Source of the DNA: Candidatus Omnitrophota bacterium
GTDB lineage: Bacteria > Omnitrophota > Gorgyraeia > Duberdicusellales > 4484-171
Direction of reading: 5' to 3'
Assembly (NCBI GenBank): GCA_021735655.1
Contig: JAIPGM010000009.1
Coordinates: 1-64,000 of the forward strand
Length of the DNA: 64,000 bases
Shown in pieces: positions 3,821 through 63,000 of this stretch. The position numbers and the translations under genes were made by a program. Position 1 is the stretch's first letter. Every line of letters starts with the position of its first letter. The notes under the pieces are model-generated. The model saw only the letters and a program-made list of their open reading frames with translations, was not told the origin of the DNA and did no database searches.

Positions 3821-4700
3821 TTTTCTTTGAATTATATAACAATACTATATCGCCTAACCTACAGCCAGTATGCTCAGCTACTACCTGACACTTAACCATG
3901 AATAAAAAGAAAATTGGCCTTTTTTCTTGCGACAAAGTTTCAAAGTTACCCTGGCCCTTGCTGATTATCATGTCGGCGCTACGGTAAATCCGCTTAAATT
4001 CTTTTGAGCATAAAGGCAATATTGTTCCCGGGGCATCAGTCCCATTAGAAATTATCCGGCTCACCTTATCTAAACCGCAAACTCTGGCATCATCCAACAG
4101 GGCATCGTTTATAATCGGCTTTTCCTTTACCGCATAATAAATAATTTTATCAGGATAAAGTCTTTTTATCTCTTCAATCAAAATCCGGTCAAAAACTGTT
4201 TCGCCGGCATTATCAGCTAAATAAAGAATATTTTTAGTTTTTTTAAGGCACTGTTTAAACTCTCGATAATGAAATATTGACTGCTTATCGATGTATTTCT
4301 TTTCTTTAGCTAATATTTTTTTTAATTCTTGGTCAATATTCAAATTGTTTTTTACTCCAAAATCTATAATATTGCCGGCAATGGCCAGTTCCACTGACAC
4401 CAAAAGCCGATTCTTAGAAGAATTTACCTTATTCTTTAATTGCTTATAGAGCTTTAAAGCTAGGCGGTTGCTTGTAGCCTTTATTTTTTTATAAGGGTCA
4501 TTTCCCGGACTAAGCTTTTTTAACAAGTGATAACCCACACGAGCTATCTCCGGAGGCGTAGAATTAAGAGAAACTTCAGAGATTGTCTTTGCTAAGTGAT
4601 TAATAATCTGCTTCTGATGTTTCGGACTCAACCCAGCAATCCTGGCTCCTTCCAGAGCCTGCCGAAAAAAACAAGGTATACAGTCTAGATAAGTTTTCAT
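3810..4700 (-). CDS. DUF89-family protein (damage-control phosphatase ARMT1-like)
   Basis: The N-terminal MKTYLDCIPCF and the overall pattern resemble DUF89. This assignment is from memory of the family, not a search. Confidence 0.5.
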   Translation of the reverse strand: MKTYLDCIPCFFRQALEGARIAGLSPKHQKQIINHLAKTISEVSLNSTPPEIARVGYHLLKKLSPGNDPYKKIKATSNRLALKLYKQLKNKVNSSKNRLLVSVELAIAGNIIDFGVKNNLNIDQELKKILAKEKKYIDKQSIFHYREFKQCLKKTKNILYLADNAGETVFDRILIEEIKRLYPDKIIYYAVKEKPIINDALLDDARVCGLDKVSRIISNGTDAPGTILPLCSKEFKRIYRSADMIISKGQGNFETLSQEKRPIFFLFMVKCQVVAEHTGCRLGDIVLLYNSKKNAG

Positions 4701-5473
4701 TAAACTTTACCTCGCCTGGCTAAGGTATCTTTATTGCTAATCGGTTTAATATCTTTTTTTGACGCTTCATAGACCGATACCGCAGGCAACCCTTCAAAAT
4801 ATTTTTTTATTCCGGTTAATTCTCCTTTGGGTAACGGCTTCACCCTGCACAGCCTAAGAGGCGTATTAATTTGAACTTCCTCAGGATTAATTTCTCTTAT
4901 AATCTTTGCAATCTCTTTTGCATATTTTTTATTTTCTTTGATAAACATAACTTGCAATGCTAATTTCCCTTGATATATATTTTTAAATTTTTTTATCGCG
5001 AAAACAATATTTTTAAAATAAATGCTTTTTAACGGACGATTAATTACCTCAAAAACTTCCTGCGAACAAGCATCAAGCTTAACTGCAACTAAATCAGCGA
5101 GTAATAGGTCTTTCTGGACATCTTCTCTGTGTAATAGAGAAGAGTTAGTTAAAACTGCTATTTTGTTTTTTCGTATTCTTTTAACCGCCCTTATCGCATC
5201 TCCCAAATTCTCGGCGATAGTCGGCTCACCTGCTCCAGAAAAAGTAATATAATCTATTTTTACCGGCGGCAATGAGTCTAGCTCTTCAATAATCTTACTG
5301 ACCGGAACAAAAACCTTTCTTTCATCGCTAAAAAGCAGGGTTTTGCCCAATTGGCAATATATACAATCAAAACTACAGATTTTATTGCCTTGAGAAATTA
5401 GGTCTATCCCTAAAGAACTGCCCAACCTCCATGAAGGAACCGGGCCGTAAATATATTTAAATTCAGGCTTCAT
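4700..5473 (-). CDS. Radical SAM protein (CX3CX2C)
   Basis: It has the CSFDCIYC cluster motif and a YGPVPSWRLGSSLGI N-terminus typical of a radical SAM subfamily. Its start overlaps the DUF89 gene by 1 nt. Confidence 0.8.
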   Translation of the reverse strand: MKPEFKYIYGPVPSWRLGSSLGIDLISQGNKICSFDCIYCQLGKTLLFSDERKVFVPVSKIIEELDSLPPVKIDYITFSGAGEPTIAENLGDAIRAVKRIRKNKIAVLTNSSLLHREDVQKDLLLADLVAVKLDACSQEVFEVINRPLKSIYFKNIVFAIKKFKNIYQGKLALQVMFIKENKKYAKEIAKIIREINPEEVQINTPLRLCRVKPLPKGELTGIKKYFEGLPAVSVYEASKKDIKPISNKDTLARRGKV

Positions 5474-6286: not shown

Positions 6287-7276
6287 TTATGCCGACACGT
6301 ATTTATTTTTATCTTTAAAACTTGGCTCTCTTGGCCCGTCAACCGGCAGCTTAGACTCACTGATGAATGCCTTAAAACTTCCTAAACGAACAGATTGCCC
6401 GCTTGGCTTATTTGAAAAAAGGTATTGCTTCTTCGTGTCTAATTTTTTTATAAGTTCATCTTCAAAGGCATATGCCGAAACAAAATCCATTCCATTTTTC
6501 GTTAAAACAAAAACAGGTATTTGCCGAGAAAGTTGCATTATAGCCGCAGGGCCGATCATCTGTCTTATATCAAAAGAAGCGCAACTCCAGACTAAATCAG
6601 CGTAATCACGTATCATGTTAATTTTATCTTTAGCTATACCGGTCGTACATATTGCCAATGAAATTATTCTAATACCGCTTTCTTTTTCTAACGAACGTAA
6701 TGCTTTTAAATTCTTAGCTGAATGACCACATATAGTAACCGCAATAGTCTTATATCCTGCTTTTATCGCGCCTTCAACTCCCCGTACCTGATCAATAAGC
6801 GCGTTTTCAAATATCATCTGACAGCCAGCAGCCTTAAGTTTCTGAATAATCGCTTTAATCGGTGAGGTTAACAATAAACTATTCATTCGGGCGCCGATGC
6901 CTTGTACTATTTCCGGTTTATCGGTAACAACCGTCCCCGCCCCTTCGCAAACTACAACTGCCGAATCTATCGTACCTTTTTTTAACGCGAACATGAGCAT
7001 CTCTGAAGCGCCATATGGTATCGTAACATCATCATATGAAATTTTTCTCTCATCCGTAAAAAAACCGTAGTCTTTTATTTTTGACTCAATCACTTTTTTT
7101 ATAGAATTTTTAATGGCTTCCTTATTGTTGCCCCGAATACCACTAAAATCCTTATATAGGTGCTCGGCCAGTGGGCAAAAAGCAAGTGTTGGCTCGGTAA
7201 TATTAATGACCTTCCCAGAAGATACACTCACAAACGATGAAAAATATTTTAATATATGGATATCCCGTTTATCCAT
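6287..7276 (-). CDS. Conserved hypothetical protein, possibly DUF2099-like
   Basis: It is a long ORF with good coding periodicity. The family assignment is uncertain. Confidence 0.4.
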   Translation of the reverse strand: MDKRDIHILKYFSSFVSVSSGKVINITEPTLAFCPLAEHLYKDFSGIRGNNKEAIKNSIKKVIESKIKDYGFFTDERKISYDDVTIPYGASEMLMFALKKGTIDSAVVVCEGAGTVVTDKPEIVQGIGARMNSLLLTSPIKAIIQKLKAAGCQMIFENALIDQVRGVEGAIKAGYKTIAVTICGHSAKNLKALRSLEKESGIRIISLAICTTGIAKDKINMIRDYADLVWSCASFDIRQMIGPAAIMQLSRQIPVFVLTKNGMDFVSAYAFEDELIKKLDTKKQYLFSNKPSGQSVRLGSFKAFISESKLPVDGPREPSFKDKNKYVSA

Positions 7277-7288
7277 AAAATCCTTATT

Positions 7289-8140
7289 CTAAACTTGTAA
7301 TTTTTCCCAAATTTTGCGAATCTCACCCTTAACTACCGTATCCTTATATTCAATAATAGTCTTACCCTCAACCATAGCTTCTACCACTGTTTTATCAAAT
7401 CTGACTTTACCGGCTAAGGAAATTCCACTCTTTAGGCAATGTTCTTCTATTTTTTCTGACATATCCAAATTTAAATCATATTTATTAATTACTAACCGCG
7501 AAGGGACATTAAAATGTTTAGTTACTTCTATAACCCTTAACGCATCATGCAAACCGGATAAGGTGGGTTCAGTTACTACTACCGCGCAATCTATTCCAGA
7601 AAGCGAGGCGATAACCGGACATCCTATACCTGGGGCACCGTCAATGATAACCCAATCACAATTATTCTTCTCGGCCAGTTCTTTTGCCTGTTTTCTCACC
7701 AATGAGACAAGCTTGCCTGAATTCTCTTCAGCGATTCCAAGTTTAGCGTGCACCATCGGGCCAAAGCGAGTTTCGGAAATAAACCACTCTCCGGCAATAT
7801 TCTCTTCCATCTTAATAGCGCCAACCGGACAAACATGATAACAAAAAGTACATCCTTCGCAGGAAACCCCATCTACAGAAAAATCTTCACTTATAGCAGA
7901 GAAACGACAGACTTCAACACATTTGCCGCATTTAACACATTTTTCCTTATCAATAACGGCTGTTTTGCCACTTCTGAATTCATGTTTTTCTTTGACCGAC
8001 GGCTTCAGCAAAAGATGCAGATCCGCTGCGTCCACATCGCAGTCAGCCATAACTTTATTTTTCGCCAGTGCCGCGAAGGCTCCGGTAATTACAGTCTTGC
8101 CTGTCCCGCCTTTTCCACTTATTATGACTATTTGCTTCAT
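7289..8140 (-). CDS. MinD/ParA-family P-loop ATPase with an inserted 4Fe-4S ferredoxin domain (COG1149-like)
   Basis: It has the SGKGGTGKT deviant Walker A and two CxxCxxCxxxCP motifs (CVKCGKCVEVC, CEGCTFCYHVCP). I moved the start to MKQIVIIS, giving a 10-nt gap after the upstream stop. Confidence 0.8.
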   Translation of the reverse strand: MKQIVIISGKGGTGKTVITGAFAALAKNKVMADCDVDAADLHLLLKPSVKEKHEFRSGKTAVIDKEKCVKCGKCVEVCRFSAISEDFSVDGVSCEGCTFCYHVCPVGAIKMEENIAGEWFISETRFGPMVHAKLGIAEENSGKLVSLVRKQAKELAEKNNCDWVIIDGAPGIGCPVIASLSGIDCAVVVTEPTLSGLHDALRVIEVTKHFNVPSRLVINKYDLNLDMSEKIEEHCLKSGISLAGKVRFDKTVVEAMVEGKTIIEYKDTVVKGEIRKIWEKLQV

Positions 8141-8150
8141 GCAGTCTCTC

Positions 8151-9497
8151 TTACATTTTATCTGACGCGTTTTGAGCCGCCAAGACAACCGGATACATAG
8201 TTGGAGCAGATGTTAAATAGGGGTGAGTTGCCATTTGCAATGTTTCTAACTCGGTTATCGAGACTCTCTGTTGAATAGCCATACCAATAATGTTGATTAT
8301 TTCCCCCGCTGATATGCCTCCAGCTACCTGCCCACCCATAAAAATACCTGATTGTTTTGAAAAAATAAGTTTTACCCTTATTTTGTTTGCTCCGGGAAGG
8401 CTTCCGGGATGTTTATCAATACTCTCGGTATTTCCCGAAACAATCTCAAATCCCTCTTTCTTGGCACTCATTTCGGTAAGACCGGCTGAACCCAAAACCA
8501 AACCATCCACGTAAGTTGAGTAAATCGCTATTGTCCCCTTATTTTCACGCACAACCTTTAATTGGTATAGATTTGCTCCGGCAATCCTCGCCTCAGCAGT
8601 AGCAGTAGAAGCAAGCATAACTGGTGTGTCTTTTCTCGTGTAAAAATCTCGTTTTCCGGCACAATCACCCACAGCAAAGATATCGGAATCAGCAGTACGC
8701 ATATACTCATCCACCCATATACCCTGGCCTCTTCCTAAATCCAAACCTGCTTCGGTCGCTAAGGCTGTATTCGGACTAGCGCCTATCCCTAAAATAACGC
8801 TATCCACTTTAAGCTCTTTTCCGTTTTCAAACCGCACACCCTCTACTCTTTCCTTCCCTAAAAATTCAACCACTTTAGTGTCAGTTAAAATGGTGACTCC
8901 TCTTGACTTTAACTTCTCTTCAACCAATAAAGAAAATTCCTTATCAAAAGAATTTGCCAGTAAACACGGAAGAACCTCTGCTAAATATACATTAACACCG
9001 TTTATTTTTGAAATCTCATCAGCAAATTCAACGCCGATAAATCCTCCCCCCAGAACCAATACATCCTTAGCTTTTTTTAATTCCGCTACTGTTTTTTTTA
9101 AATAATCCATTTCTTTATATATCGGGTAAACTCCCTCTTTATCAATTCCAACTATTGAGGGCTTAATCGGCACCGAACCAGGGGCAAGGACCAATTTCTC
9201 ATATTCATATTCTTCGCCACTTTTAGCGGTTACTTTTTTTAGGCTACGGCTTATCTTTACCGCCTCATCAATAACGATTTCTATATTATTCTTCTTAAGA
9301 GCGTCAAGCCCCAACTTATTGTCATCGGGATTTTTAAGGCTCCAAAACATATAAGGAATACCACAAGGAATACAACCGTTAATCACATTTTTCATAACTA
9401 AGACATTTTTATCCGGATAATATCGCTTTGCCGTGATCGCACTCACCAACCCAGCTGGTCCACCGCCAACAATAAGAACATCCACTTTTTTAGCCAT
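8151..9497 (-). CDS. FAD-dependent pyridine nucleotide-disulfide oxidoreductase (NADH oxidase / CoA-disulfide reductase family)
   Basis: It has the VLIVGGGPAGL FAD motif, a single redox Cys in CIPCGIPY, and a second GGGFIGVE NAD motif. Confidence 0.85.
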   Translation of the reverse strand: MAKKVDVLIVGGGPAGLVSAITAKRYYPDKNVLVMKNVINGCIPCGIPYMFWSLKNPDDNKLGLDALKKNNIEIVIDEAVKISRSLKKVTAKSGEEYEYEKLVLAPGSVPIKPSIVGIDKEGVYPIYKEMDYLKKTVAELKKAKDVLVLGGGFIGVEFADEISKINGVNVYLAEVLPCLLANSFDKEFSLLVEEKLKSRGVTILTDTKVVEFLGKERVEGVRFENGKELKVDSVILGIGASPNTALATEAGLDLGRGQGIWVDEYMRTADSDIFAVGDCAGKRDFYTRKDTPVMLASTATAEARIAGANLYQLKVVRENKGTIAIYSTYVDGLVLGSAGLTEMSAKKEGFEIVSGNTESIDKHPGSLPGANKIRVKLIFSKQSGIFMGGQVAGGISAGEIINIIGMAIQQRVSITELETLQMATHPYLTSAPTMYPVVLAAQNASDKM

Positions 9498-9513: not shown

Positions 9514-9897
9514 TTATAAAGATTCTAGCATTACACAGAGTCCATAAATTACATCAATGTTATTGTCACGACAAAATTTTATCGCAGTTTCATTTTCAGC
9601 TCCCGGTTGAAGCCAAACTCTTCTTATAGATTTTTCCCGACATTCCTTTACTATCGCCTCGGTAACCGAAGGAGGGGTAACCAGATTAGCAACATCAATA
9701 TTAAAAGGAATATCGCTTATACTTTTATAACCTTTTACTCCGTCGACATCATTTAAACGGGGGTTAACCGGATATGCCTCATACCCCCTTTTTATCAAAG
9801 TCCTCAAAATTTTATACGCGTATTTAGTTTCATTTCTGAACGAGCCCACGACCGCAAATTTCTTCTGCCTTAAAAAATCCTTAACTAAGTTTTCCAT
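9514..9897 (-). CDS. CoA-binding domain protein (YccU/YneT-like)
   Basis: It has the KKFAVVGSFRNETKYAYKI pattern. The start was taken at MENLVKDF. Confidence 0.7.
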   Translation of the reverse strand: MENLVKDFLRQKKFAVVGSFRNETKYAYKILRTLIKRGYEAYPVNPRLNDVDGVKGYKSISDIPFNIDVANLVTPPSVTEAIVKECREKSIRRVWLQPGAENETAIKFCRDNNIDVIYGLCVMLESL

Positions 9898-10738
9898 CTT
9901 TAATCTTATTAAAAAGCTGCTCAAAATCTTTTCTGTATTCGGGAAAGGCTTTTACAATCGGCTCACCTTTTGAATAGGTAATTGCTATCTCCTTTTTAAA
10001 AGGTATCCGCATAAGAATAGGAACATTCTCCTTTTGGCAATACTCATCTGTTTTATTGTCCCCCAAATCCGAGCGGTTAATCACGACCCCAAAAGACACT
10101 TTCAGCTTTCGTAAAACTTCTACAGCCAGCATTAAATCGTTCAACCCAAACGGCGTTGGCTCAGTAACCAACAGGCAAAAATCACTTCTCTTTATAGTCT
10201 CAACCACCGGGCATGATGTACCAGGAGGAGCATCAATAATAACCGTACCTGTTGGATCAATATACTTCTTGATTTGCCTTATGACCGGCGGCACCATTGC
10301 CTCTCCGATATTTAGACGTCCATGTATAAACTGCATAGAACCAACCTCACCAATCTCGATTTCACCAATCTCTTTATTAACTTCCTTTATCGCCGCTTGG
10401 GGACAAAAGTAAGTACAGCTTCCGCAGCCATGGCAAAGGTTCGAAAAGACTAAAATGTTTCCCTTCCTCTCCTTGGATTCGGCTATCACCGCGATAGCAT
10501 TATAAGCGCATACCTGACGACACTTGCCGCAATAATTACACTTTGCTTGGTCAATTTCCGGAACCGGGATAAAAACTTTTTGGATACTGCTTATGGTCGG
10601 CTTCAAAAAAATATGTGCGTTGGGCTCTTCAGCGTCACAATCTAAAAACTGCACCCTCTCCTTTATAGAAAGTGCCAAATTGACCGCTATTGTAGTTTTT
10701 CCTGTCCCGCCTTTTCCGCTGGCAATTGATATAATCAT
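9881..10738 (-). CDS. MinD/ParA-family P-loop ATPase with an inserted 4Fe-4S ferredoxin domain (paralog of 7289..8140)
   Basis: It has SGKGGTGKT plus CNYCGKCRQVC and CHGCGSCTYFCP motifs. The start ATG was verified at 10738. Confidence 0.8.
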   Translation of the reverse strand: MIISIASGKGGTGKTTIAVNLALSIKERVQFLDCDAEEPNAHIFLKPTISSIQKVFIPVPEIDQAKCNYCGKCRQVCAYNAIAVIAESKERKGNILVFSNLCHGCGSCTYFCPQAAIKEVNKEIGEIEIGEVGSMQFIHGRLNIGEAMVPPVIRQIKKYIDPTGTVIIDAPPGTSCPVVETIKRSDFCLLVTEPTPFGLNDLMLAVEVLRKLKVSFGVVINRSDLGDNKTDEYCQKENVPILMRIPFKKEIAITYSKGEPIVKAFPEYRKDFEQLFNKIKDGKLS

Positions 10739-10742
10739 AAAT

Positions 10743-11354
10743 TTACATAAGTGAGTGGCAAGCTGTCACTATTTCCTGAAACTTACTGGAATACGTTTCT
10801 ATGCTAAAATCTTTTCTCTGTAAATATTTACCTATATCGTTTAAGTTTACCGAGCCTGCCTTATGAGTTCTCCCTTCGCTCTCATGAATCTTACCGATTA
10901 GTTTTAACCCCTCTTCGTTAAAATCACTCAAGATAAATTTACCTTCAAAACTAGTTACTCTGATAAGTTCATCCATTACTTTATAAGGATTTTCGAAATG
11001 ATGAATAGCGTTGATTACAAATACTGTATCAAAACTTGCATCTTTAAAGCTAAATTGTTCGGCATTTTCTATTTGAAAATTTACCAATTTTGCAAAACCA
11101 AAATATTTTATATTCCGTCTAGCATAATCTTGTTCTTGATACGAAACGTCAACACTAGTAAAATTATACCCTGCCTTAGCTAACTCAACAGTAAAATAAC
11201 CTTTTCCAGTCCCCACTTCTAGAATATCTCCATCGAAAGGGCATGATTTCTCTAAAATAAATTTACGCTCTTTTTCAATATCGTAACCAAAGCTTTTATA
11301 AAAATTTACCCTTTCTAAATATCGAGTATAATAATCTGATGTTTTATTTTCCAA
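10743..11354 (-). CDS. Class I SAM-dependent methyltransferase
   Basis: It has the ILEVGTGKGYF motif I. The start is TTG, verified at 11354, with SD AAGGGAGT. Confidence 0.75.
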   Translation of the reverse strand: MENKTSDYYTRYLERVNFYKSFGYDIEKERKFILEKSCPFDGDILEVGTGKGYFTVELAKAGYNFTSVDVSYQEQDYARRNIKYFGFAKLVNFQIENAEQFSFKDASFDTVFVINAIHHFENPYKVMDELIRVTSFEGKFILSDFNEEGLKLIGKIHESEGRTHKAGSVNLNDIGKYLQRKDFSIETYSSKFQEIVTACHSLM

Positions 11355-11357
11355 AAA

Positions 11358-11576
11358 CTACTCCCTTAACATTCGAGTCGCACATTTAGGACAATTTAAT
11401 GAATTACACGGAACGCTTGCCTGATGAGATAATTTCGCCCCACAGCTTGGACAAATACAATTTCCACTTGGGCCAGCACCAGGACTATTGCCACCATTGC
11501 GCCCCCTACCGCGCCCCATTCCTCTACCTGTCCCTGAACCTTGACCGAAAGGACCTGTCCCATCTCCTCTTGGCAT
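11358..11576 (-). CDS. Small Gly/Arg-rich protein with an MPRGDGTGP N-terminus and a C-terminal C4 zinc ribbon (DUF5320-like)
   Basis: It shares the MP(R/G)xDGTGP..G.G..TG N-terminus with ORF 12693..13043. It has CICPSCG...CPKC motifs. Upstream is a strong SD, AAGGAGGT. Confidence 0.55.
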   Translation of the reverse strand: MPRGDGTGPFGQGSGTGRGMGRGRGRNGGNSPGAGPSGNCICPSCGAKLSHQASVPCNSLNCPKCATRMLRE

Positions 11577-11657
11577 TTTATACCTCCTTAATTTTCGAAA
11601 TTTACTAAATTGATAAATTAACTCCTAAAATTCTTAAGGAAGGATCTTAATCTAACT

Positions 11658-11825
11658 TTATAACGAAATCGCTTCAACCGGGCATTGGCTTAAACAAGCT
11701 CCGCAATCTACACATTCTTGACTAATAACTGCTTTACCCTCTTCAATCTTAATCGCCTGTACTGGACACACATCAACACAAGCGCTACAACCAGTACATT
11801 TATTATTATCTACTTTAGCCGCCAT
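11658..11825 (-). CDS. 2x[4Fe-4S] ferredoxin
   Basis: It has two motifs: CTGCSACVDVCP and CVDCGACLSQCP. The start was moved to MAAKVD, preceded by a strong SD, AAGGAGGGGG. Confidence 0.8.
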   Translation of the reverse strand: MAAKVDNNKCTGCSACVDVCPVQAIKIEEGKAVISQECVDCGACLSQCPVEAISL

Positions 11826-11838
11826 GCCCCCTCCTTTA

Positions 11839-12204
11839 TCATTTATTACCAAAATGTGAATCTACACTTGGACCTTGGGTTAGTTTAAATTCCCCCCTTT
11901 TATACTTCGCTATCACTTCTTTAATTGTTCCCGATACACCAGCAATCACATCAAGGCCTGCTGCCTGTAAGGTCTGAAAAGCATTTGGTCCAACATTGCC
12001 GGTTAAAATTACTTTTACCTGCTTTTCGGCTGCAAGCTGACCCGATTGAATTCCAGCCCCACCCATACTATCTATATTAGGATTCTTAACTGACTCAAAA
12101 TCCTCTGATTCGGTATCAGCAATAATAAAATACTGACAACGACCAAAGCGAGGATCAACCGTCGAATCTAGGCTATCCCCTTGTGACGTAATACAAATCT
12201 TCAT
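11839..12204 (-). CDS. Dinitrogenase FeMo-cofactor biosynthesis-domain protein (NifX/NifB-C-terminal-like)
   Basis: It has MKICITSQGDSLDSTVDPRFGRCQYFII, the canonical start of this domain family. Upstream is SD AGGAGGT. Confidence 0.75.
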   Translation of the reverse strand: MKICITSQGDSLDSTVDPRFGRCQYFIIADTESEDFESVKNPNIDSMGGAGIQSGQLAAEKQVKVILTGNVGPNAFQTLQAAGLDVIAGVSGTIKEVIAKYKRGEFKLTQGPSVDSHFGNK

Positions 12205-12215
12205 AAATTTACCTC

Positions 12216-12617
12216 CTATTCATGCTCACAGTTATCTTCATCAGGATGATCACAAGCTGTCTTTTCTACGCCATATCCTTTTCCGGCCCCAGGCTGGCAA
12301 AGGCTTTCCCCTCCTTTAAGTGTTCCGGCCGTAGCTTGCTTAACTATTTCATCTACTTTTCCGCTAATCCCCATTATTGTTTTTATTCCACTTTCATCAA
12401 ATAACATTTGAGCCCTTTGCCCCATGCCACCAGCGACAATGGCGTTCACTCCTTTCTCCTTTAAAAACTGAGGTAAAAACCCCGGGTGATGCCCTGGGTT
12501 ATCAACCACCTGTTTCCTTATTAGTTTATCACCCTCAAGCTCTACAATAGTAAAGGAAGGACACCGGCCAAAATGAGCTGATACTAAATCACCATCTGTT
12601 GAAATTGCTACTTTCAA
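12216..12617 (-). CDS. Dinitrogenase FeMo-cofactor biosynthesis-domain protein (NifX/NifB-like), with an Asp/Cys/His-rich tail
   Basis: It has MKVAISTDGDLVSAHFGRCPSFTIV. The start is TTG, verified, with SD AGGGGGT. Confidence 0.75.
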   Translation of the reverse strand: MKVAISTDGDLVSAHFGRCPSFTIVELEGDKLIRKQVVDNPGHHPGFLPQFLKEKGVNAIVAGGMGQRAQMLFDESGIKTIMGISGKVDEIVKQATAGTLKGGESLCQPGAGKGYGVEKTACDHPDEDNCEHE

Positions 12618-12692
12618 AATTACCCCCTTATTAAAAATTTACCAAACAAGTAAGAATAAAGATATTTCCTTACCCCTACCTATCTCTTTACA

Positions 12693-13043
12693 CTATTTAT
12701 TACCTTCAAGTCCAGCATTAGATTCTAATTCCTTAATGCGCTGATTCATAGCTTCAATCTCATCCTGCATCAGCTTCGCTTCGGCTTTTAACTCAACTGC
12801 CTCCTGCTGTGGTGTAAGCCCGGGAACATACGGTAATCCAAAATAAGGATTTCCGTAAGCGTAACCGCCGGCTCTTCGCCATCCAAAGCCTCTTCCAAGA
12901 CCCCTTCCTAATCCACGACCTCTGCCAAAAAATCCACCTCTGACCGGACGCTGCGCACTTCCTGCCGGCAATGCACAATAGCCTCTTGCCCCACCGGTCA
13001 TCGAGCCTAACCCTTGAGGACCTGTTCCATCGAAACCTGGCAT
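12693..13043 (-). CDS. DUF5320-like protein: MPGFDGTGP N-terminus, Gly/Arg-rich middle, C-terminal coiled coil
   Basis: It has the shared N-terminal motif and SD GGAGGT. A Fur box lies immediately upstream. Confidence 0.6.
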   Translation of the reverse strand: MPGFDGTGPQGLGSMTGGARGYCALPAGSAQRPVRGGFFGRGRGLGRGLGRGFGWRRAGGYAYGNPYFGLPYVPGLTPQQEAVELKAEAKLMQDEIEAMNQRIKELESNAGLEGNK

Positions 13044-13063
13044 TTAAATCACCTCCATTTTTT

Positions 13064-13082
13064 GTTAATGATAATCATTTTC
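13064..13082 (-). promoter_or_regulatory. Fur box: 17 of 19 matches to GATAATGATAATCATTATC
   Basis: The plus strand reads GTTAATGATAATCATTTTC. It lies 20-40 nt upstream of the start of 12693..13043 and directly downstream of the fur stop. Confidence 0.6.
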
Positions 13083-13101
13083 ATTAATATTTTAAAAAAA
13101 A

Positions 13102-13584
13102 TTACTCCTCCTTTTTACCTTTACATTTATCACATAACCCATAAAATTGGATAACGTGATCGTCGATTTTAAAGTTATATTTTTTAGACAATCCTTTTTC
13201 TGTCTTCTGTAATAGTTCAATTTCATCTTTAATAAAATCAGTATAGTCAATAACCCTTCCACAATTCCTACATACTAAATGATGATGATGATGCCGTTGG
13301 CCTTTGGGGCCCTGGTTTAACTCATAGCGTGCTCTTCTATCTCCAAAATCTGATCTAATTACCAAGCCCATTTGAACAAGCAATTCAAGCGTACGATACA
13401 CAGTAGTTAAGCCAACATTGGGATAATCCTTATGAACCTTTATATATACATCCTCAGCACTAACATGTACAGAGGTTGCACCTAAAACGTCCAAAATTGC
13501 CCTTCTCGGAACAGTAAACCTATAACCACATCCTTTGAATTTGCCTTGCCACCAGCTAGGCCCTCTTTTGCATCTACCTTGCAC
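13102..13584 (-). CDS. fur: Fur-family metalloregulator (Fur/Zur/PerR)
   Basis: It has a winged-helix N-terminus (FTVPRRAILDVL), HHHHH...CRNCGRV and a C-terminal CDKC. The start is GTG with SD AAGGAGGA. Confidence 0.85.
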   Translation of the reverse strand: MQGRCKRGPSWWQGKFKGCGYRFTVPRRAILDVLGATSVHVSAEDVYIKVHKDYPNVGLTTVYRTLELLVQMGLVIRSDFGDRRARYELNQGPKGQRHHHHHLVCRNCGRVIDYTDFIKDEIELLQKTEKGLSKKYNFKIDDHVIQFYGLCDKCKGKKEE

Positions 13585-13598
13585 TACTCCTCCTTATT

Positions 13599-13646
13599 GA
13601 TAATGGTTTCCATTTCTAATATAACATTCATCTCAAAGCTTGTCAA
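13599..13646 (-). promoter_or_regulatory. Sigma-70-type promoter of fur (TTGACA-17-TATATT), followed by an AATGGAAACCATT palindrome (Fur-box-like auto-operator)
   Basis: The -35 is at 13641-13646 and the -10 at 13618-13623, with a 17-nt spacer. The palindrome at 13602-13614 lies between the -10 and the RBS. Confidence 0.55.
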
Positions 13647-54018: not shown

Positions 54019-57000
54019 TTACAAATCAGTTGCTTTTTTCTTCTTTTTCTCATCATCGTCTTTGCCGCCAAAATAAGGAGCTAGAGTCCCTTTGAGGTTA
54101 ATATTCTGCTCAATGAACTCATAAGCACCACTATCTAGGCTAATACCATCAAAGCCTGACTCATCGGTTACAGTTAACGGATGATAAGCATAAAAATCGG
54201 TGCTTCTAACTGGGGTAACTGTACTAAATCTATAGTTAGCCATCAATTCATAGTAAGTCCTAGAATCACGCAAGATACTTGCTAAAAATTGAGCACCGTC
54301 AAATTCTGGTAAGAAATCTGGCCAAATCTGCTGAGGTCCTAAGTTAGCTGCCGCAGGGCCAAACAAAGGTGAAGCACCTCTGGTGTCGGTATCATCATAA
54401 AAGATGTATCCCGGAGGTGTAACATTGGTTAAGTCAATATCTGGCGATGGAAAAACCCCGGTAACTGCTGTAACCCCAGGTCTAACTATACCTTCAATGG
54501 CTCCGCTTACCCCTAAGGTACCACTAGGACCAGCTAAGGTAAAACCAGGAGCAGCGCCACCTATCTCTAGGGTAAGCCCAGCAACTGGCGTAAAACCAGC
54601 AGGAACTGCCCATTTTGAAGGATCTAAATCCACTGCCTGAATATTTACATTTAAAGGATTATAAAAATTATCTGCATCTACTGGAACTCCTGCGTTACCA
54701 ATTCCAATTGTGCCTTCTGGTGTTGAGAAATAAGAATAACTTCCAGCAATTACGTTTGGCCCAGAAACCGGGTCAACTACGTAATGTGAAAATACATCTA
54801 TTCCACCATCGGTCGACCAAGGAGTACCAGTTAAGTCCATCGGAAGCGCTCTTGCGAAATCATTTACCGTGTCAGGACCAGTTGTTACGTCTGGTTGTAC
54901 TCCGCTAGGATCCCAGCCGGTTCCGGCATAAATCGAGCCAGTGCGGCTTTCTAAATAAACTCCACCGCGCGGTGCGATAACTGAGTTAACTGTCATGTCC
55001 CCACCACTACTAACATTAATTATCCCATTATTAGCAGCAACTGAAAGACCATAAAGAGTGCCTGCGTCCTCAGTCAAGGTACCTAGGGTAATGCTGTCTA
55101 ATTCATTAACGTAGATGTTTCCTACATCCCAAGAGTAAGCACTTAAATAATCAACTGCTGTCATAAATGGCGAAGCACTGGTACCGATATTGTGACGGGC
55201 CAATAACCCGGCAAAATCAGCGCTAACCAGCGAAGTAGCATCACCATAGATATTACCTTCCCAAGCATAGATATCTACTTCTGAGCTGCCTGTACCGCCA
55301 ACTGAAGCTGAAATAGAGCTATTAGCAAGGGTTACATCGCCGTTACCAGAGATTAAAGTTGCTCTGGCATCGCCGTCACCTATCATCTCAGCTGAAACAG
55401 TACTATCAGTAATATTTACACCCAAATTAGCAAATAATTCAACTAAAGCTGTATCACTACCACTTAAAGCTTGAGCTAAAATAGTGCTGCCATTAGTTAC
55501 GTTAATTTCACCATCTTGGGCGGTTACGCCTATTTCGGCATGACCTTCTCCATCTACGTCAGCAGTAATATCACTATTGCTAATATTAACATCGTTAAGG
55601 GTATTAATATCAACAAGGGCTATTCCTTCATTGCCTACTAAAGCTTCCAAGGTTGAATCGGTAATTGTTGTACTATTCCCAGCAACGCTAAGAATAGTTG
55701 CATCACCATCATTGCCAACTGAAGCTATTACTGTACTTTCTATTACCTCTATGTTGCCTTTGTCGGCAGCCAAGTTAACCGTAGCATCGCCATCATTTAC
55801 TACTGATGCAGCAAGTGTACTCGGATCAATGGTTATATCATTTGCGGCAAGAACGTTAATCGTAGCATCGCCATCATTACCAACCAAAGCTTCCAAGGTT
55901 GAATCAGTAATTGTAGTATTGTCGCCAGCTTCTAAGTTAACTGTTGCGTCACCGTCATTACCAACCAAAGCATATCCATAATCAGTGTAGGCTTCAACAT
56001 GACCAGTATCGACCTCGATATCATCTTCAGCTTCGATATTGACAGTGGCTTTGATGTCGCTGTCTTGGATTTCGACTCTTTCATCAGCTTCTAGATTGAT
56101 CTCAGATTTAACCGTACTAGAAGAGATCTTGACATCATCAGCTGATACTATATCGACCTGAGCTTCAATTGTCTCATCAGTTACTTCGATGTTTTCTCCA
56201 GCTTCAATGTCAATTGTTGATTTTACAGTGCTGTCTTGAATTATTAGGTCATTCCACCAGTTGCCTTCTTCAGGATCCCAACCACCGACTACTAGGTCGA
56301 TCTCGGATTTAACGGTGTCAACGTCATCGCCGTTGGTGATCTCAACGTCATCTTCAGCATCGATGTCAACTGTGGCTAATACATTACTGTTAACAATCTC
56401 CATCCTCTCATCAGCCTTAAGCTCGACTTCAGACTCGATATGGCTGTCGATTGACTTTACGTCATCTGAGGACTTAAGAGTTACTTCAGATTCGATGGTC
56501 TCACCAGTTACCTCTATAGTATCCTCAGCAGTTACATCGACTAAGGCCTTAACGGTTGATTCTTCAATTACCAGGTCGCTCCAGTTGCTGTCATTGTCAC
56601 CACTCCAGCCGCCGGCTACCAGATCTATTTCAGCTTTGATAGTTTCACCTTCAGCGTTAGTGATTTCAACGTCATCTTGAGCCTCAATCTCAATAGTAGC
56701 TAAGATATCGCTGCTTTCAATTTGCAGACGGTCTTGAGCTACTAGTTCAAGTTCGGCTTCTATAGTGCTATCAGTTATCTTTACATCGTCTGAAGACTTA
56801 AGAGTTACTTCAGATTCGATGGTCTCATCAGTTACTTCAATCTTGTCATCGGCAGTTACATCTACCAATGATTTAACTGTTGAATCTTCAATTACCAGGT
56901 CGCTCCAGTTGCTGTCATTATCACCACTCCAGCCGCCGGCTACCAGGTCTATTTCAGCTTTAACAGTAGTCTCACCTTCAGTGATCTCAACGTCATCTTC

Positions 57001-60000
57001 GGCGTCAATAGCTACAGTTGCTAGAATATCACTGTCAGTTATTTCTAAACGATCATCAGCTACTAGCTCGGTTTCAGCTTCGATAGTGCTTTCAGAGATC
57101 TTCACATCGTCGCCGGAAGCTATATTAACTGTTGATTCAACAGTCTCACCGGTTACTTCGATCTTGTCATCGGCAGTGATATCGACCAGTGATTTAACCA
57201 AACTGCTGTTGATTATTACATCATTCCACCAGTTACTTGCATTGTTTACCACGATATCAATCAATGAGCCGATAGTTTTACCGCCGTCATTGGTGATCTC
57301 AACGTCATCTTCAGCTTCGATATTGACAGTGGCTTTGATGTCGCTGTCTTGGATTTCGACTCTTTCATCAGCGCTAATCCTAACTTCGGCCTTAACATCA
57401 CTAGAAGCAATCTTTACGTCCTCATCGGCACTCAAGTTTACTTCTGCAGTTAAGTCTTCACCGTCTAAGTCGATATTAGAATCTTCCAATTCGACTTTAG
57501 CCAATACTGTACTGCGTGTTACCTCTATATTGTTGTCAGCTTGGGCATTAACCGTTGCTTGGCCTTTTCCTTCTAAAATCGCCTCGACTGTACTGTCCTC
57601 TATTTTAATGTCATGATCAGCTTGTAAGTTAACTCTTGATTCACCATCAAGATAGTTAATCGCTCTAACCAAACTGTCATTCTTTACTATTAAATCATTA
57701 CCAGCAGTAATATTTACACTGGCTACGCCGGTGTCAGAAGGTGGATCGATTGCTCTAACAGTGCTGTTATCCACAGTCACATTGCCTAAATCGGAATGGA
57801 TACCAATATAGGCGCCACCATCAGATGAAGGGGCAAGTTTAGAAAAAGCGCTTACTAAGCTATCCTTGATCACTATATCATTATCGGCAAGTAAGTTAAT
57901 CCAGGCTGATGCACCAAGGGCCCTGGCGATAACATCACTTCTTAATAAACCGATTCTATTAGCATCGAATCTAATTCTTGATAGTCCACCAAGATTTAAC
58001 TCATTAGTAACTACCCTTGAGTCAATCACCCTAATATCATCATTAGCATCGAAGAAAATCCTGGCTAAGTAATTACCGAACGAATTAGCTCTAACTACGC
58101 TACCGTCTCTTAGACCGATGTTTTTACCAGCATGAAACTCAACATTTGCCGGACCATTATTAATTGAGGTAGCTGCAACTCGTGAGTTTGTTAAACCGAT
58201 ATTATCCCCAGCATCTATTGTAATAATTGCTGAGGCTACTCCATCAAGCACCTGGCTCAACAAATCGCTGTTGTTCAGAAATACATCACTAGCAGCATCA
58301 ATATCTATCTCAGCATGGCCGGTGTTTGACACTATTGCTTTCACTTCACTGTCATCGATTGTAATATCGCCATTCTCGGTCGAAATATCTACATAAGCAT
58401 TACCGTTCAAAACTGATGCTGTAATGTAGCTTGTGTCTATGGCAATGTTATCACCGGCAGATAGATCAACTGAAGCATCGCCGTCACCCTCAACGGTTGC
58501 ACTTACAGTGCTGTCAGTGATGGTTAAATCTCCATTCTCAAGTGTACCCGATGTAGGAGGAACAGGTTCGTAAGGAGTGGTCCAATCACCAGCTACCATT
58601 TTAACCGTAGCATTACCGTTTCCGGTTACATTAGAAGAAACTGTACTATTAGCAACACTAATGTTCTCACCTTCAGCAAAAACCTCTGCATTACCAGTAC
58701 CGGTTTGAGCTGAAACTGTACTTGAATCGTTTATATTAAGATCAGCGCCATGGAAAGTGCTGTTATACAAATCTGGATCAGGAAAATTTATCATAATCCC
58801 ATCTGCATGCAATCCGGCGCTAAGTTCAACATTGGCATCGCCGGTTCCTTGAGTGATTGCGCTAACTGTGCTGTCAACAACATCGATCCCCTGCCAAGCA
58901 CGGACAGTTGTTGTAGTATCACCATTGCCAGCTGTGAAAGCTCTGACTATGCTGTTGTTTTGTATTGCGGTATTGCCAGAAGTTCCAAAAAAGACTGTTG
59001 AATCTCCGTCATTACCAACAGTGGCTTCGATTGTACTGTTATCAACTGTTTGAGAGGCAATCGGCCCATGAGTAAGCAGTGAAACTTCAGCATCACCGTC
59101 ATTGCCAATAGCCGCTGAAACAGTACTATCTAAAACTTGTAACGGCCCAGCCGATCTTAAAACAACACTAGCGGTGCCATTTAAAGCTGAGGCCGAAATC
59201 AAACTCGGGTCTATAGTCAGAGTTCCGTCGGCAATCATATTTCCAGCAGTTAAATCAACTGAAGCATTGCCAGTGCCTACGACAGTAGAAGTAATATCAC
59301 TATCGGTTACAGTAACATTTGTACCAGCATCTACATCAATCGAAGCATCGCCATCAAGGCCAATTCTAGCTAAGATATCGCTATCGACTATCGAAACTAG
59401 ACCATTAGTTGCATTTGCAATAACTGTTGCATCTCCACCGCCGCGGACTCTTGAACGAATTAGGCTATTGTCCCTAATGGAGATTCCTCTTCCCGGTGTT
59501 GTTAAGCTAACTGAAGCATTTCCATTGCCATTAACCCAAGCATCAATGACGCTTGAGTCGTACACACTGATTCCATTGTCAGCATCAGCAGTAATCAAAG
59601 CATTTCCATCGCCCGCACGAAAAGCCTCAATAGTTCCATCTACAAAAAGAGTTCCACTGTTAACGTCTAAATTAATAACTGCATCATCAGCTGGACCAGA
59701 TCCAGTTGCCAAAACTGAATAAGCATAAGTATCTCCACCGGTAATAATATCGACTACACTCCCTAGAGCCTGGATATCCCAAAGATTTACACCGTCTAAC
59801 TCGTTAATCCATACATCGCCACCTAAAGCAATCGCTTGCCAGATATCATCTACGTTAGTGTCAATATGATCACCTGGGACACCAATAGTACCAGCTGCAT
59901 TCATGTAAAGATTTGGAGCTGTTAAATTAATGCGATTACCATTAGTATCGAGAATATCGCCTGCAGAACTAGTTAAACGAATATTATCGCCAGCATTAAT

Positions 60001-63000
60001 AACACCTAAAGAAATATTACCAACTGCATTAATATTAGCATCATGACCAGCCGTAACAGTGCTATTCGATACCACAACCTGACCATCAGCGTCAATATTT
60101 ACATCATAACCTGCGGTCATATCACTTGAACCATTCATGATAGTATCTCGACCGGTGACAACGTTAATACTTCCGTCAGAAAGTAACGCCGAGCTTTGGC
60201 TCATGATTAAATCCTGAGCTGCATAGATATCAACCAATCTGCCTGAGCGGATAGTTGAATTATTGTTCATAAGAACATCTCTCTGGGCATCTACGTCAAC
60301 CCAAGCTGTACCTAAAATATCTGCATTGTTAAACATCCTTAAGTCTGCATCAAGGTTTACATCAACAATTCTGGCTTCAATTGATGAGTTGTTATGCATA
60401 CCTAAACCAAAAGCGTCAATGCGTGCATTAGTGGCATTAATTGCTGAAGTATTATACATTCTCATAAGATTAGCCACATCAATCGTTACATTTGTACCTG
60501 AGATAGATGATCTATTATTCATTGTAAAATTATCTGGCCCTGCTCCATCACCTACGTTTACAAATATATCAGTTCCGGTAATCGAAGATGTGTTATTCAT
60601 CTCCATATAATCATCGGCTGAAACATTCACCGTAGCACCATGGATAAGAGCATCGCCGTTCATAGTTAAAGTATCATTGCCAGATCCATTGCCAGCTGAA
60701 ACATTAACTATACCGCGTGTGCCAATAGTGCCTGTATTGTGGACTAGATCGTTATCGGCATGTACATTAACTGTACCTGAGCCAAGGCTGATAACATCAG
60801 CGTTAACTGTCATATCAGCTCCGGGGCCAGAACCATTAGCTGCTAAACTAACATCACTATTTCCAACAACATCAGCATTAACTGTCATTGGCGAACCAGT
60901 AGTAATATCAATATTTCCACTACCAAAGTTCTTTACGGCATATCCCCATCCTGGCAAATCATTGAGGGCTATAGCACCCTTATTGCGAATAGTGATATCA
61001 CCGCTTGAATCAGGATCGCGTACCTGTGCGCTTAAACTGCCAATTCGAGTTTTCAAATCAATTGAAGTCTTTGCATCAAGTATCGCTGTATCAGAAATGA
61101 TGTTTGGCCCAAACCCACTATTACCTATAATAGAGCCGGTAAAGTTAAATGGATAAACATCGTAGCCCATTGTCAAAAGAATAACATCAGTTGCAATTAA
61201 TTGGTTAATCGCTAAGTCAGTTAGCTCATTTAAATTAATAAGCCCGCCAACGCGACCCTCTAAAGTTTCTATCTCGGTCTCGATTCCATTACCTAAACCA
61301 GCGAGACCAACATTACCGTCAACATCAAAGGCAAGTGTGTCAGCTACAATATCAGTGCCGATGTCGCCTGAGCCCTGCTCCTGCACATCACCTGAACTGA
61401 TTAGCTTAAATTTCAGCCCCGGCTGATCTAAATTATTAATTGTGATAGTTCCGGCGCTACTTGAACCGATATTGATAAAACCAGAAGTAATCAAATTGTA
61501 GATTTCATCATTAGAAAGCCTAAACTGACCATAAGCTAAATGTGCGGCTAGAGCAATTGTCTGAGCAGCGCTTGGGGCAATAGTAATATCTGCCGTGCCG
61601 GCATCTACGATACCGTCAACATTAATGTCATCAGCGCTTATGTAGACTTCTCCGTCAGTTGCTCCAGTTGTATCTATAACCGAACCATTTTGCAAATCAT
61701 AGAAACCAGTAGTATCACCATCGCTATCAGCTGAACCGGTAAAGCTTCCACCACCGGTGTAAACATCTCCACCAGAACTATGGATAATATCACCTACGGC
61801 AGCCAAAATTACATCTCCGCCGCCACTATTGATCAAAGCATTAACATAAAGGTTAGGATCATCAACTACGGCTATATCAATAAGTCCGTTGTTAGTAGTA
61901 ATCGCACCATCAAGCCATAAATCACCAGAGTTAATCAAACTGAAGCTATCTCCGTCAAATCCACCAAAATGCATTGCACCAGCATGATACATGGCGGCTC
62001 TTTGAGCAGTAATAGACATATTGTTTGATCTTAATTCAAGAGCACCATTTGTACCAAAACCGATATCACCACCGGCATTAAAATCTATGGTATTGGCTGA
62101 TATATCAAAGTTAGTAATACCACCTGCAACCTTATCAATTCCATCAACAGCATTGCCACTATCATAAGCATCATTGATATTTCCACCGGCCGTAACTGTT
62201 ACTGTTCCTAATGCAGGAATAGCTGAACCAGTAAAAGTACCATCAGTTGAAACCCTAGTAACATAAGCATCTTGGGCAGCAGTTAAGTCAATATCTCCGC
62301 CGTCAGTAACTACGCTGCCTGTTTGACTAATAGCCAAATCTCTTCCAGCATCAAGACCAACATTGCCAGCGCTTGAATCAACAGCAGCATTTACTGACAA
62401 ATCTCCATCAGCACCAGCTGCAGCTAAACTAATATCGCCCAAGGCTAAAACATCAGAATTTACTGTTAAAGGAGAAGCTGTAGAAATATCAACTGCTCCA
62501 CCGATATTATTAACACCACTACCGGCGATAGTTAGATCTCCAGTATTATCAATTTCTATATTTCCTGAAATCGTATTAAGAGCTTCTAAATTACTTACCT
62601 GTGTTTCTAAAGCATCGCCGGAACCGATTCCTTGAGCTGCAGAAATGCTTAAAGAATCAGCGGTGATATCAGGAGTAGTGGCACTATTAGCATCTACTAC
62701 TGCCCCATCACTTGAATTTATATTAACATTTACACCACTCAATCCAGTTGTAACTGTTGTTGAAGTGGCGCCTAAAGGATCGCTTCCTACCTCATAAGAT
62801 GCTTTTAACCACGCATCACTTCTGGCAACATTTGAAACCCTGACTTCATCAATCTGGCCTTCAGTTAAATAATTTGTATCACCCCAACCGCCAATCATAA
62901 AGTCGGTAGCAGTATCGACATCGCCTGATGAAGTTGCAAAACCAATATTGTCACCTGCGCCATCTACATACAAACTTCCTGAACCACCGCTACGAGCAAG

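Follow-up and report, generated by a model that had tools for sequence, protein, structure and literature searches.

Two small genes in a stretch of 64,000 nucleotides (nt) from a Candidatus Omnitrophota bacterium (contig JAIPGM010000009.1, positions 1 to 64,000; this whole stretch is referred to below as the window) encode two architectural variants of the DUF5320 family (PF17253), one ending in a cysteine-rich ribbon and the other in a coiled coil, within an operon of the type that contains the orange protein (ORP) of Desulfovibrio. We have very little doubt about the family assignment of these genes, here called A and B, or about their membership in this cluster. They are new members of a known family lacking an assigned function, in a known but poorly understood kind of cluster, and the function that we propose for them is inferred from sequence comparison. 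The coordinates of the features discussed are collected in Table 1.

Family membership and the shared N-terminal signature

Both open reading frames (ORFs) that a sequence-only reading of the window had singled out were found at the positions and with the sequences given there. The A protein begins MPRGDGTGPFGQGSGTGRGMGRG and runs on to a CICPSCG...CPKC segment (complete sequence, MPRGDGTGPFGQGSGTGRGMGRGRGRNGGNSPGAGPSGNCICPSCGAKLSHQASVPCNSLNCPKCATRMLRE), and the B protein begins MPGFDGTGPQGLGSMTGGARGYC and has a C-terminal helix. As that reading had also noted, the two genes flank a pair of Nitro_FeMo-Co (NifX-like) genes, here NifX1 and NifX2, and a 2x[4Fe-4S] ferredoxin gene, and each is preceded by a strong Shine-Dalgarno ribosome-binding site; this site lies 6 nt from the ATG in each case (AGGAGG for A, GGAGGTG for B). 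The DUF5320 search that it had proposed returned both proteins above the Pfam gathering cut-off of 27 bits. B scored 78.4 bits (E = 1e-21) over model positions 1-99 of 99 and is a canonical full-length member; A scored 28.8 bits over model positions 1-39 only, not the full length, and as judged by sequence is a DUF5320 protein through its N-terminal signature only, with a Gly/Arg linker and a Cys6His ribbon where the model has an aromatic tail and a helix. A database entry from a genome bin, 'DUF5320 family protein [Candidatus Omnitrophica bacterium]' (P0121), has a sequence 100% identical to that of A. The homologues of A form at least 329 clusters of about 74 amino acids (aa), and most of the members listed have no recorded Pfam DUF5320 match. 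Those of B form 390 clusters, the best 120 of which all carry PF17253 and nothing else. No third gene with the signature was found in the window, and no solved structure was found for the A or B family.

The signature common to A and B is MPxxDGTGPxGxGxxTG and spans 18 residues. When an alignment of the A family (117 sequences) was compared with one of the B family (100 sequences) by hhalign, the two matched with 94.7% probability and an E value of 6e-8, over columns 1-18 only. The description of A and B as paralogous therefore stands for the 18-residue signature and fails for the remainder of the two proteins. A direct BLASTP comparison of the two proteins gave no significant match (E 2.2 to 75), owing to composition correction and low complexity, and profile methods were used instead. 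The shared motif, whose absence from orthologues had been named as the mark of a chance similarity, is present and invariant or nearly so in both families: M1, P2, and G8 are invariant among the 117 A orthologues, in which G4, G6, T7, and P9 are at least 90% conserved, and M1, P2, G8, G17, G21, and C23 are invariant in the 100 B sequences. Conservation is not confined to glycine, as hundreds of A and B orthologues show little or no variation at M1, P2, D5, T7, and P9.

A set of 1.84 billion representative proteins was searched with a profile made from the motif alone, as it occurs in the two N-termini, and at least 2,378 clusters (50% identity) matched at E ≤ 0.001. All of the 150 best matches were small proteins of 38-261 aa, and most had the motif at residue 1; an internal motif was usually the second copy of a tandem. 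A Pfam scan of the 147 newly returned proteins among these assigned all of them to DUF5320 and to no other Pfam family; the remaining three had already been found in the B homologue search. In the four tandem-signature genes that were read at the DNA level (locus L085, positions 7120-7137, and loci L022, L045, and L067), the ATG of the second unit is preceded in frame, at the spacing of a ribosome-binding site, by the canonical site AAGGAGGT, which is translated as Lys-Glu-Val. This arrangement could reflect internal initiation or a recent gene fusion, and it suggests that the N-terminus carrying the signature needs to be free. Related loci contain further architectures, namely the signature and Cys followed by a long Gly/Arg/Trp/Tyr tail without a helix, the signature and Cys followed by a Gly/Gln/Arg tail, tandem signatures, and a B-type unit fused to an A-type protein.

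Architecture of A and B

Residues 1-38 of A have an isoelectric point (pI) of 12.0 and contain 16 Gly and 5 Arg, and AlphaFold2 modeled the linker with a predicted local distance difference test (pLDDT) score from below 50 to about 60. The ribbon that follows was modeled as beta hairpins with pLDDT 79-86. Seven of its residues are invariant or nearly so among orthologues, C40, C42, C45, H51, C57, C62, and C65, so that the C4 zinc ribbon proposed from the sequence has to be replaced by a set of six Cys and one His. Two CPxCG knuckles (C42/C45 and C62/C65) are recognizable within this set, as are predicted beta hairpins like those of small zinc-ribbon proteins such as Rpb12/RpoP, L40e, and HVO_2753-like proteins; A differs from these in C40, H51, and C57 and in having no significant match to any solved ribbon. 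Foldseek returned zinc ribbons as the best matches, none of them significant (best E 0.37), and comparison with PDB sequences gave weak, non-significant matches to zinc-ribbon chains. With three extra conserved ligands, more than one metal site or an iron-sulfur (Fe-S) site is possible in A.

B is built differently. Its first 24 residues are not basic (pI 5.6), whereas residues 25-76 have a pI of 11.8 and a net charge of +7.8, with 16 Gly, 8 Arg, 9 aromatic residues, and 5 Pro, and were modeled with pLDDT below 50. Across the B family the tail averages 27% Gly, about 21% aromatic residues, about 10% Arg, and 11% Pro. The helix at residues 78-113 was predicted with pLDDT 83-89; its heptad a/d positions are occupied by A, L, A, M, I, M, I, L, and A, the segment has a pI of 4.5, and L85 within it is invariant in the 100 sequences, all of which agrees with the coiled coil that had been read from the sequence. 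The idea that both proteins carry small metal-binding modules may thus hold for the ribbon of A but not for B, which has one invariant Cys, a cationic aromatic tail, and the coiled coil. Within A and B, other frames of the minus strand contain ORFs of 55 and 61 aa (11396-11563 and 12793-12978), which are probably not genes of their own but a consequence of the locally high G+C content that coding for Gly and Arg entails in a genome with 39% G+C.

Conserved gene neighborhood

All genes of the operon are on the minus strand. A Fur-family regulator comes first, followed by B, NifX1, NifX2, the ferredoxin, A, a methyltransferase, a MinD/ferredoxin ATPase, and a CoA-binding protein; then by a pyridine nucleotide-disulfide oxidoreductase (best matches to CoA-disulfide reductase, below the cut-off), a second MinD/ferredoxin ATPase, a DUF2099 protein, a NifU-like scaffold, and AdoMet_dc; and then by a radical S-adenosylmethionine (SAM) protein, an ARMT1-like protein, a protein of the metallo-beta-lactamase fold, thioredoxin, and DnaJ. 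When species-representative genomes were scanned with the alignment of the A family, at least 600 stretches matched, 385 of them with A-like proteins, and the best 80 loci were used. These come from more than 20 phyla, archaea included. NifX2-like genes were present in 63 of the 80, MinD/ferredoxin ATPase genes in 60, B-like genes in 57, and Fur genes in 24; the methyltransferase (20 of 80) is an accessory found in a minority, and radical SAM genes were present in 23.

Adjacency was equally consistent. The gene before A was NifX-like in 40 of 75 cases, and the commonest gene after it was a MinD/ferredoxin ATPase (34 of 75, with 27 best matching copy a of the window and 7 copy b), a methyltransferase following in 7 more. 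NifX-like genes came directly after B in 34 of 50 cases, and Fur directly before it in 17 of 50. An independent metagenome sample, centered on B, had a NifX gene next after B in 42 of the 63 cases that could be used; ahead of B stood Fur in 9 of 75, DUF134 in 10 of 75, and a gene consisting of signature and tail only in 10. Long metagenome contigs have the order regulator, B, NifX2, A, MinD, MinD, NifX1, NifU, and the neighborhoods of three B homologues on long contigs agree with it. In 160 loci, drawn from more than 20 phyla, the recurring order is a regulator (Fur or DUF134), B, the NifX-like pair, A, and two MinD/ferredoxin ATPases. By this synteny, seen in both genome and metagenome loci, A and B are conserved components of the cluster to which the NifX-like pair belongs, as had been supposed.

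DUF134 (PF02001), a predicted DNA-binding protein, replaces Fur upstream of B in L086, L087, L083/L084, and many of L090-L169; L087 has a trio of DUF134, a small signature protein, and B without other ORP genes. The DUF2099 gene of the window (6287-7276, minus strand) passes the NCBIfam model 'methanogenesis marker 8 protein' (240.2 bits; cut-off, 232.7) in what is a bacterial operon, and DUF2099 recurs in at least two other Omnitrophota loci (L066 and L069).

Table 1. Positions in the window of A, B, their segments, and associated features
Feature	Coordinates	Strand	Basis or remark
Gene A, 72 aa	11358..11576	minus	DUF5320 family: signature, Gly/Arg linker, Cys6His ribbon
A residues 1-18, signature MPRGDGTGPFGQGSGTGR	11523..11576	minus	hhalign and conservation
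A residues 19-38, Gly/Arg-rich linker	11463..11522	minus	predicted disordered
A residues 39-72, Cys-rich ribbon	11361..11462	minus	conservation and AlphaFold2
Gene B, 116 aa	12693..13043	minus	canonical full-length DUF5320 protein
B residues 1-23, signature and Cys23 (MPGFDGTGPQGLGSMTGGARGYC)	12975..13043	minus	conservation, 100 sequences
B residues 24-76, cationic Gly/Arg/aromatic/Pro low-complexity tail	12816..12974	minus	predicted disordered
B residues 77-116, acidic amphipathic helix, coiled coil	12696..12815	minus	AlphaFold2 and heptads
Fur-family regulator, first gene of the unit	13102..13584	minus	Pfam FUR, 113.6 bits
Fur-box-like palindrome (minus strand, TGAAAATGATTATCATTAACA)	13063..13083		Fur-B spacer
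19-bp stem-loop directly after B stop codon	12644..12685	minus	terminator-like site
NifX1, NifX-like	12216..12617	minus	Pfam Nitro_FeMo-Co, 83.4 bits
NifX2, ORP/Orp8 homologue	11839..12204	minus	Pfam Nitro_FeMo-Co, 89.1 bits
2x[4Fe-4S] ferredoxin	11658..11852	minus	Pfam Fer4 families
Class I SAM methyltransferase, between A and ATPase gene	10743..11354	minus	Pfam Methyltransf_11
MinD/ParA-type ATPase with ferredoxin insert, Orp3/Orp4-like, copy a	9881..10738	minus	Pfam CbiA, ParA, Fer4
MinD/ParA-type ATPase with ferredoxin insert, Orp3/Orp4-like, copy b	7289..8188	minus	Pfam CbiA, Fer4
Radical SAM gene	4700-5473		same operon

Fusions with NifX2-type proteins and relation to the ORP cluster

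Thirteen NifX2 homologues in related loci (L005, L007, L009, L023, L037, L039, L043, L052, L054, L057, L059, L070, and L079) carry C-terminal Gly/Met/Arg repeats followed by a helix, and this region matched the B profile at positions ~30-116 with E values of 1e-17 to 3e-5. The signature and Cys are missing from all 13. In L048, a NifX2 homologue is instead fused at its C-terminus to an A-type linker and ribbon (A profile, E = 9e-30), and here the alignment with the A profile starts at position 6, only the first residues of the signature being absent. In contrast to these 14 fusions with NifX2, no DUF5320 part was observed joined to a MinD/ferredoxin ATPase. The fusions are the strongest sequence-level evidence that the tails and C-terminal modules of A and B may work physically with an ORP-like carrier. 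Most of these loci also keep a free B gene, and the fused helix may therefore pair with the helix of B. We also considered whether fusion to NifX2 makes the signature dispensable, from which a docking function of the signature would follow; this argument is weakened by the same retention of the free B gene.

The best solved relative of NifX2 is the Desulfovibrio gigas ORP (2WFB; E = 7.7e-20). NifX1 matched the NCBIfam MrpORP model at C-terminal positions 265-364 with 98.8 bits (cut-off, 450), and no full-length MrpORP is encoded in the operon of the window, only this stand-alone C-terminal-like domain; MrpORP above the equivalog cut-off was found in four related loci that have A. An HFGRC motif lies near the N-terminus of NifX1, and it has a C-terminal Cys/His tail (...ACDHPDEDNCEHE); these motifs resemble those reported for the cluster-binding C-terminal domain of MrpORP. 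The ORP homologue, the two ATPases with Orp3/Orp4 architecture, the MrpORP-like domain, and the presence of MrpORP itself in relatives together identify the cluster as of the ORP type. In Desulfovibrio, the ORP complex comprises Orp3, Orp4, Orp5, Orp8, and Orp9 and receives Fe-S clusters from MrpORP (PMC6345978, PMC8359166), and its function is unsettled, with cell division and Fe-S biogenesis both under debate (PMC6345978, PMC8359166). The two clusters differ in their control: a sigma-54 activator, OrpR, is found in Desulfovibrio, as opposed to Fur, Fur boxes, and a sigma-70-like promoter in the window and DUF134 in other loci.

Small genes stand ahead of the ORP gene and of the ATPase pair in the window, in positions like those of orp7 and orp5. 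The one Desulfovibrio cluster that was read, that of Desulfovibrio sp. X2, has no DUF5320 gene; upstream of its ORP gene are genes for a 168-aa weakly NifX-like, Cys-rich protein and for a 112-aa Gly/Gln/Arg-rich protein. Locus L089, on the other hand, encodes an ORP 69% identical to that of D. gigas, and directly upstream of the ORP gene it has a canonical B gene as well as a ribbon gene of the A type that lacks the signature. DUF5320 genes are thus frequent, not universal, in ORP clusters. The identification of A with Orp5 (DVU2105/Dde_3197) was considered and is not supported, given the sp. X2 cluster. Dde_3197 is similar to a NifX-type protein (PMC10533852), which makes it a better fit to the 168-aa protein of sp. 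X2 than to A. For B and Orp7 (DVU2107) there is only a positional analogy, and the 112-aa Gly/Gln/Arg-rich protein may be an Orp7-type counterpart of B. In ORP clusters of the Desulfovibrio type, proteins of this kind, 112 aa in length and without the signature, are encoded upstream of the ORP gene in L081 (8562-8900) and L083 (8414-8752), where they share the C-terminal sequence LRxRDGSCRR.

Regulation

A strong sigma-70-like promoter (TTGACA-17-TATATT, 13646..13618) precedes Fur, and a weaker Fur-box-like palindrome lies at this promoter (13598-13612). The 58-bp spacer between Fur and B holds the best matches in the window to the consensus TGATAATNATTATCA, with one and two mismatches, and these boxes overlap a promoter-like -10 element (promoter-like site, 13096..13068). 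Among the 19 genome loci with Fur before B, 8 have a site with at most 3 mismatches within 150 nt upstream of B, where about 0.5 would be expected; the typical form of this recurring operator is TGAAAATnATTTTCA. Of 51 genes of the B type, or with signature and tail only, that lack a Fur gene upstream, just 2 have such a site. A putative Fur operator thus precedes B, and B appears from these sites to be a Fur target. In Desulfovibrio alaskensis G20, Dde_3197, Dde_3198, and Dde_3199 (the ORP gene and two small neighbors) co-vary with feoA and flavodoxin (PMC10533852), which fits iron-responsive control; taken with the Fur sites, this points to a role when iron is scarce rather than in bulk storage.

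The hairpin directly after B has a minimum free energy of -20.5 kcal/mol (z = -5.08), and in 16 of 29 related loci B is followed by a hairpin of comparable strength. The one in the window may act as an attenuator or as a 3' stabilizer of the mRNA, setting Fur and B apart from the downstream genes.

Discussion

Our proposal, to which we give slightly less than even confidence as a whole, is that A and B serve an ORP-type metal-sulfur machinery of anaerobes, itself under Fur control, as small accessory proteins that are cationic and mostly disordered. An accessory or adaptor role fits both the synteny and the fusions of NifX-like with DUF5320 parts, and it is probable that A and B associate physically with the NifX-like proteins. 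They would bind these carriers as detachable tails or adaptors, and their cationic Gly/Arg(/aromatic) tails would help to hold the anionic metal-sulfur species of the NifX-like domain. B would multimerize via its coiled coil and may supply Cys23 as a ligand, the Cys6His ribbon of A would bind zinc and/or an Fe-S center and couple the carriers to the ATPases, and the free N-terminal signature would serve both proteins as a docking or ligand peptide.

This proposal leans on a comparison with IssA of Pyrococcus furiosus, a NifX-like protein whose cationic tail has been proposed to wrap anionic thioferrate (PMC5524996). The IssA tail contains 21% Gly, 20% aromatic, 10% cationic, and 16% Pro residues as well as the single Cys of the protein, and has a pI of 10.7 (PMC5524996). 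The B-family tail is close to it in composition, which favors the detachable-tail model, and residues 25-76 of B likewise have a pI above 10; in both systems a NifX-like domain would work with a disordered, cationic, Gly- and aromatic-rich tail that has one Cys. The Gly/Arg stretches had been taken for linkers in the sequence-only reading, but since they persist in the NifX fusions and resemble the IssA tail in composition, they may be working parts. The covalent layout of IssA is shared by the NifX2 fusions of relatives (14 loci), whereas A and B of the window are separate polypeptides. B differs further from IssA in its own N-terminal signature and coiled coil, and its apparent regulation by Fur speaks for expression when iron is low and less for a storage function. 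An electrostatic mechanism like that of IssA is, by this analogy, possible but doubtful.

A fuller version of the analogy would make A and B trans-acting IssA-like tails, docked by the signature on ORP/NifX-like carriers and multimerized by the coiled coil, that nucleate or wrap a thioferrate-like polymer or another thiometallate, possibly as a condensate-like particle. We consider this version decidedly unlikely. If true, it would mean that trans-acting tails provide Fur-controlled iron-sulfur buffering or salvage in mesophilic anaerobic bacteria and archaea; until now such a system has been known only from the Thermococcales, in the form of fused IssA.

Several observations weigh against the accessory role proposed here. 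Some B genes stand alone or with only a DUF134 regulator (L087, L133, and L139). The retention of a free B gene in most fusion loci indicates that fusion is no simple replacement of B, and the sp. X2 cluster indicates that the family is not indispensable to ORP systems. The likeness to the IssA tail is compositional only, and tracts rich in Arg and Gly are capable of nucleic acid binding as well (PMC7565180). Repression by holo-Fur runs counter to the regulation that iron stores usually show, and pure iron storage is disfavored. A search of the literature on DUF5320 returned two incidental mentions only and no functional study.

The best surviving alternative, itself unlikely, is that A and B are partners or activators of the MinD/ParA-type ATPases, their disordered, positively charged N-terminal peptide docking on the ATPase dimer and stimulating hydrolysis while the coiled coil or ribbon dimerizes or binds cargo. 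Known partners of ParA/MinD proteins, such as MinE, ParG, and McdB, are small, are encoded beside the gene of a MinD-family ATPase, and combine a disordered, charged N-terminal region with a dimerizing element, and the layout of B, with a disordered N-terminus and a coiled coil, is like theirs. The N-termini of A and B are disordered and cationic, and A is the gene immediately upstream of the ATPase gene in nearly half of the cases counted above (34 of 75), or is separated from it in the window by the methyltransferase gene. The ORP complex, moreover, has been associated with cell division and with polar localization (PMC6345978). However, the first 24 residues of B are not basic, B adjoins NifX genes rather than ATPase genes, some B genes have no ATPase gene nearby, and neither A nor B has a sequence relationship to these partners; the 14 fusions, too, are with NifX2 and none is with an ATPase.

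Still less probable is a reading in which A and B bind nucleic acids or act as regulators through RG/RGG-like tracts, with B as a co-sensor alongside Fur or DUF134 that possibly senses metal-sulfur species via Cys23. B does directly follow a regulator gene in many loci (Fur in 17 of 50; in the metagenome sample, Fur in 9 and DUF134 in 10 of 75), the minimal module of L087 joins DUF134, a small signature protein, and B without other ORP genes, and the strong hairpin sets Fur and B of the window apart from what follows. In Methanosarcina mazei, in addition, a motif survey listed the DUF5320 and DUF134 proteins among putative quadruplex binders on account of their RG-rich sequence (PMC7565180). 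Against this, no DNA-binding fold is predicted for A or B, A is embedded among enzyme genes, the operator upstream of B makes it an apparent Fur target, and the fusions of tail and helix with NifX/ORP proteins point to cluster handling.

We reject the view that A and B are precursors of ribosomally synthesized and post-translationally modified peptides, with the N-terminus as leader and the radical SAM protein and methyltransferase of the operon as maturases. It is very improbable despite the small size of the ORFs, their conserved N-terminus, and their differing C-termini, as the C-terminal modules are conserved folded units and not variable cores, the radical SAM protein has no SPASM domain and reaches the cut-off of no peptide-maturase model, radical SAM and methyltransferase genes are patchy across the loci (23 and 20 of 80), and no protease or exporter gene is part of the conserved core. 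A chance or compositional similarity between unrelated Gly-rich ORFs, to which the BLASTP result and the low complexity of both regions might have pointed, is ruled out for practical purposes by the orthologue alignments, with their profile-profile E value of 6e-8, both Pfam scores above the cut-off, and non-glycine positions conserved in a signature fixed at residue 1.

Both the DUF5320 family and clusters of the ORP kind were known before, and for the window alone our results amount to a clarification at the level of annotation, with no new kind of system. Their wider interest is that a family of considerable size (no fewer than 2,378 clusters when grouped at 50% identity) is here placed as a core syntenic component of an anaerobe-specific ORP-type cluster. 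In addition, the question of how metal-sulfur species are carried or buffered in anaerobes becomes open to experiment through the NifX2 fusions, the Fur operator, and a signature that is conserved at a free N-terminus. Elsewhere in the window, the minus strand holds a very long ORF of 3,236 aa (54019-63729).

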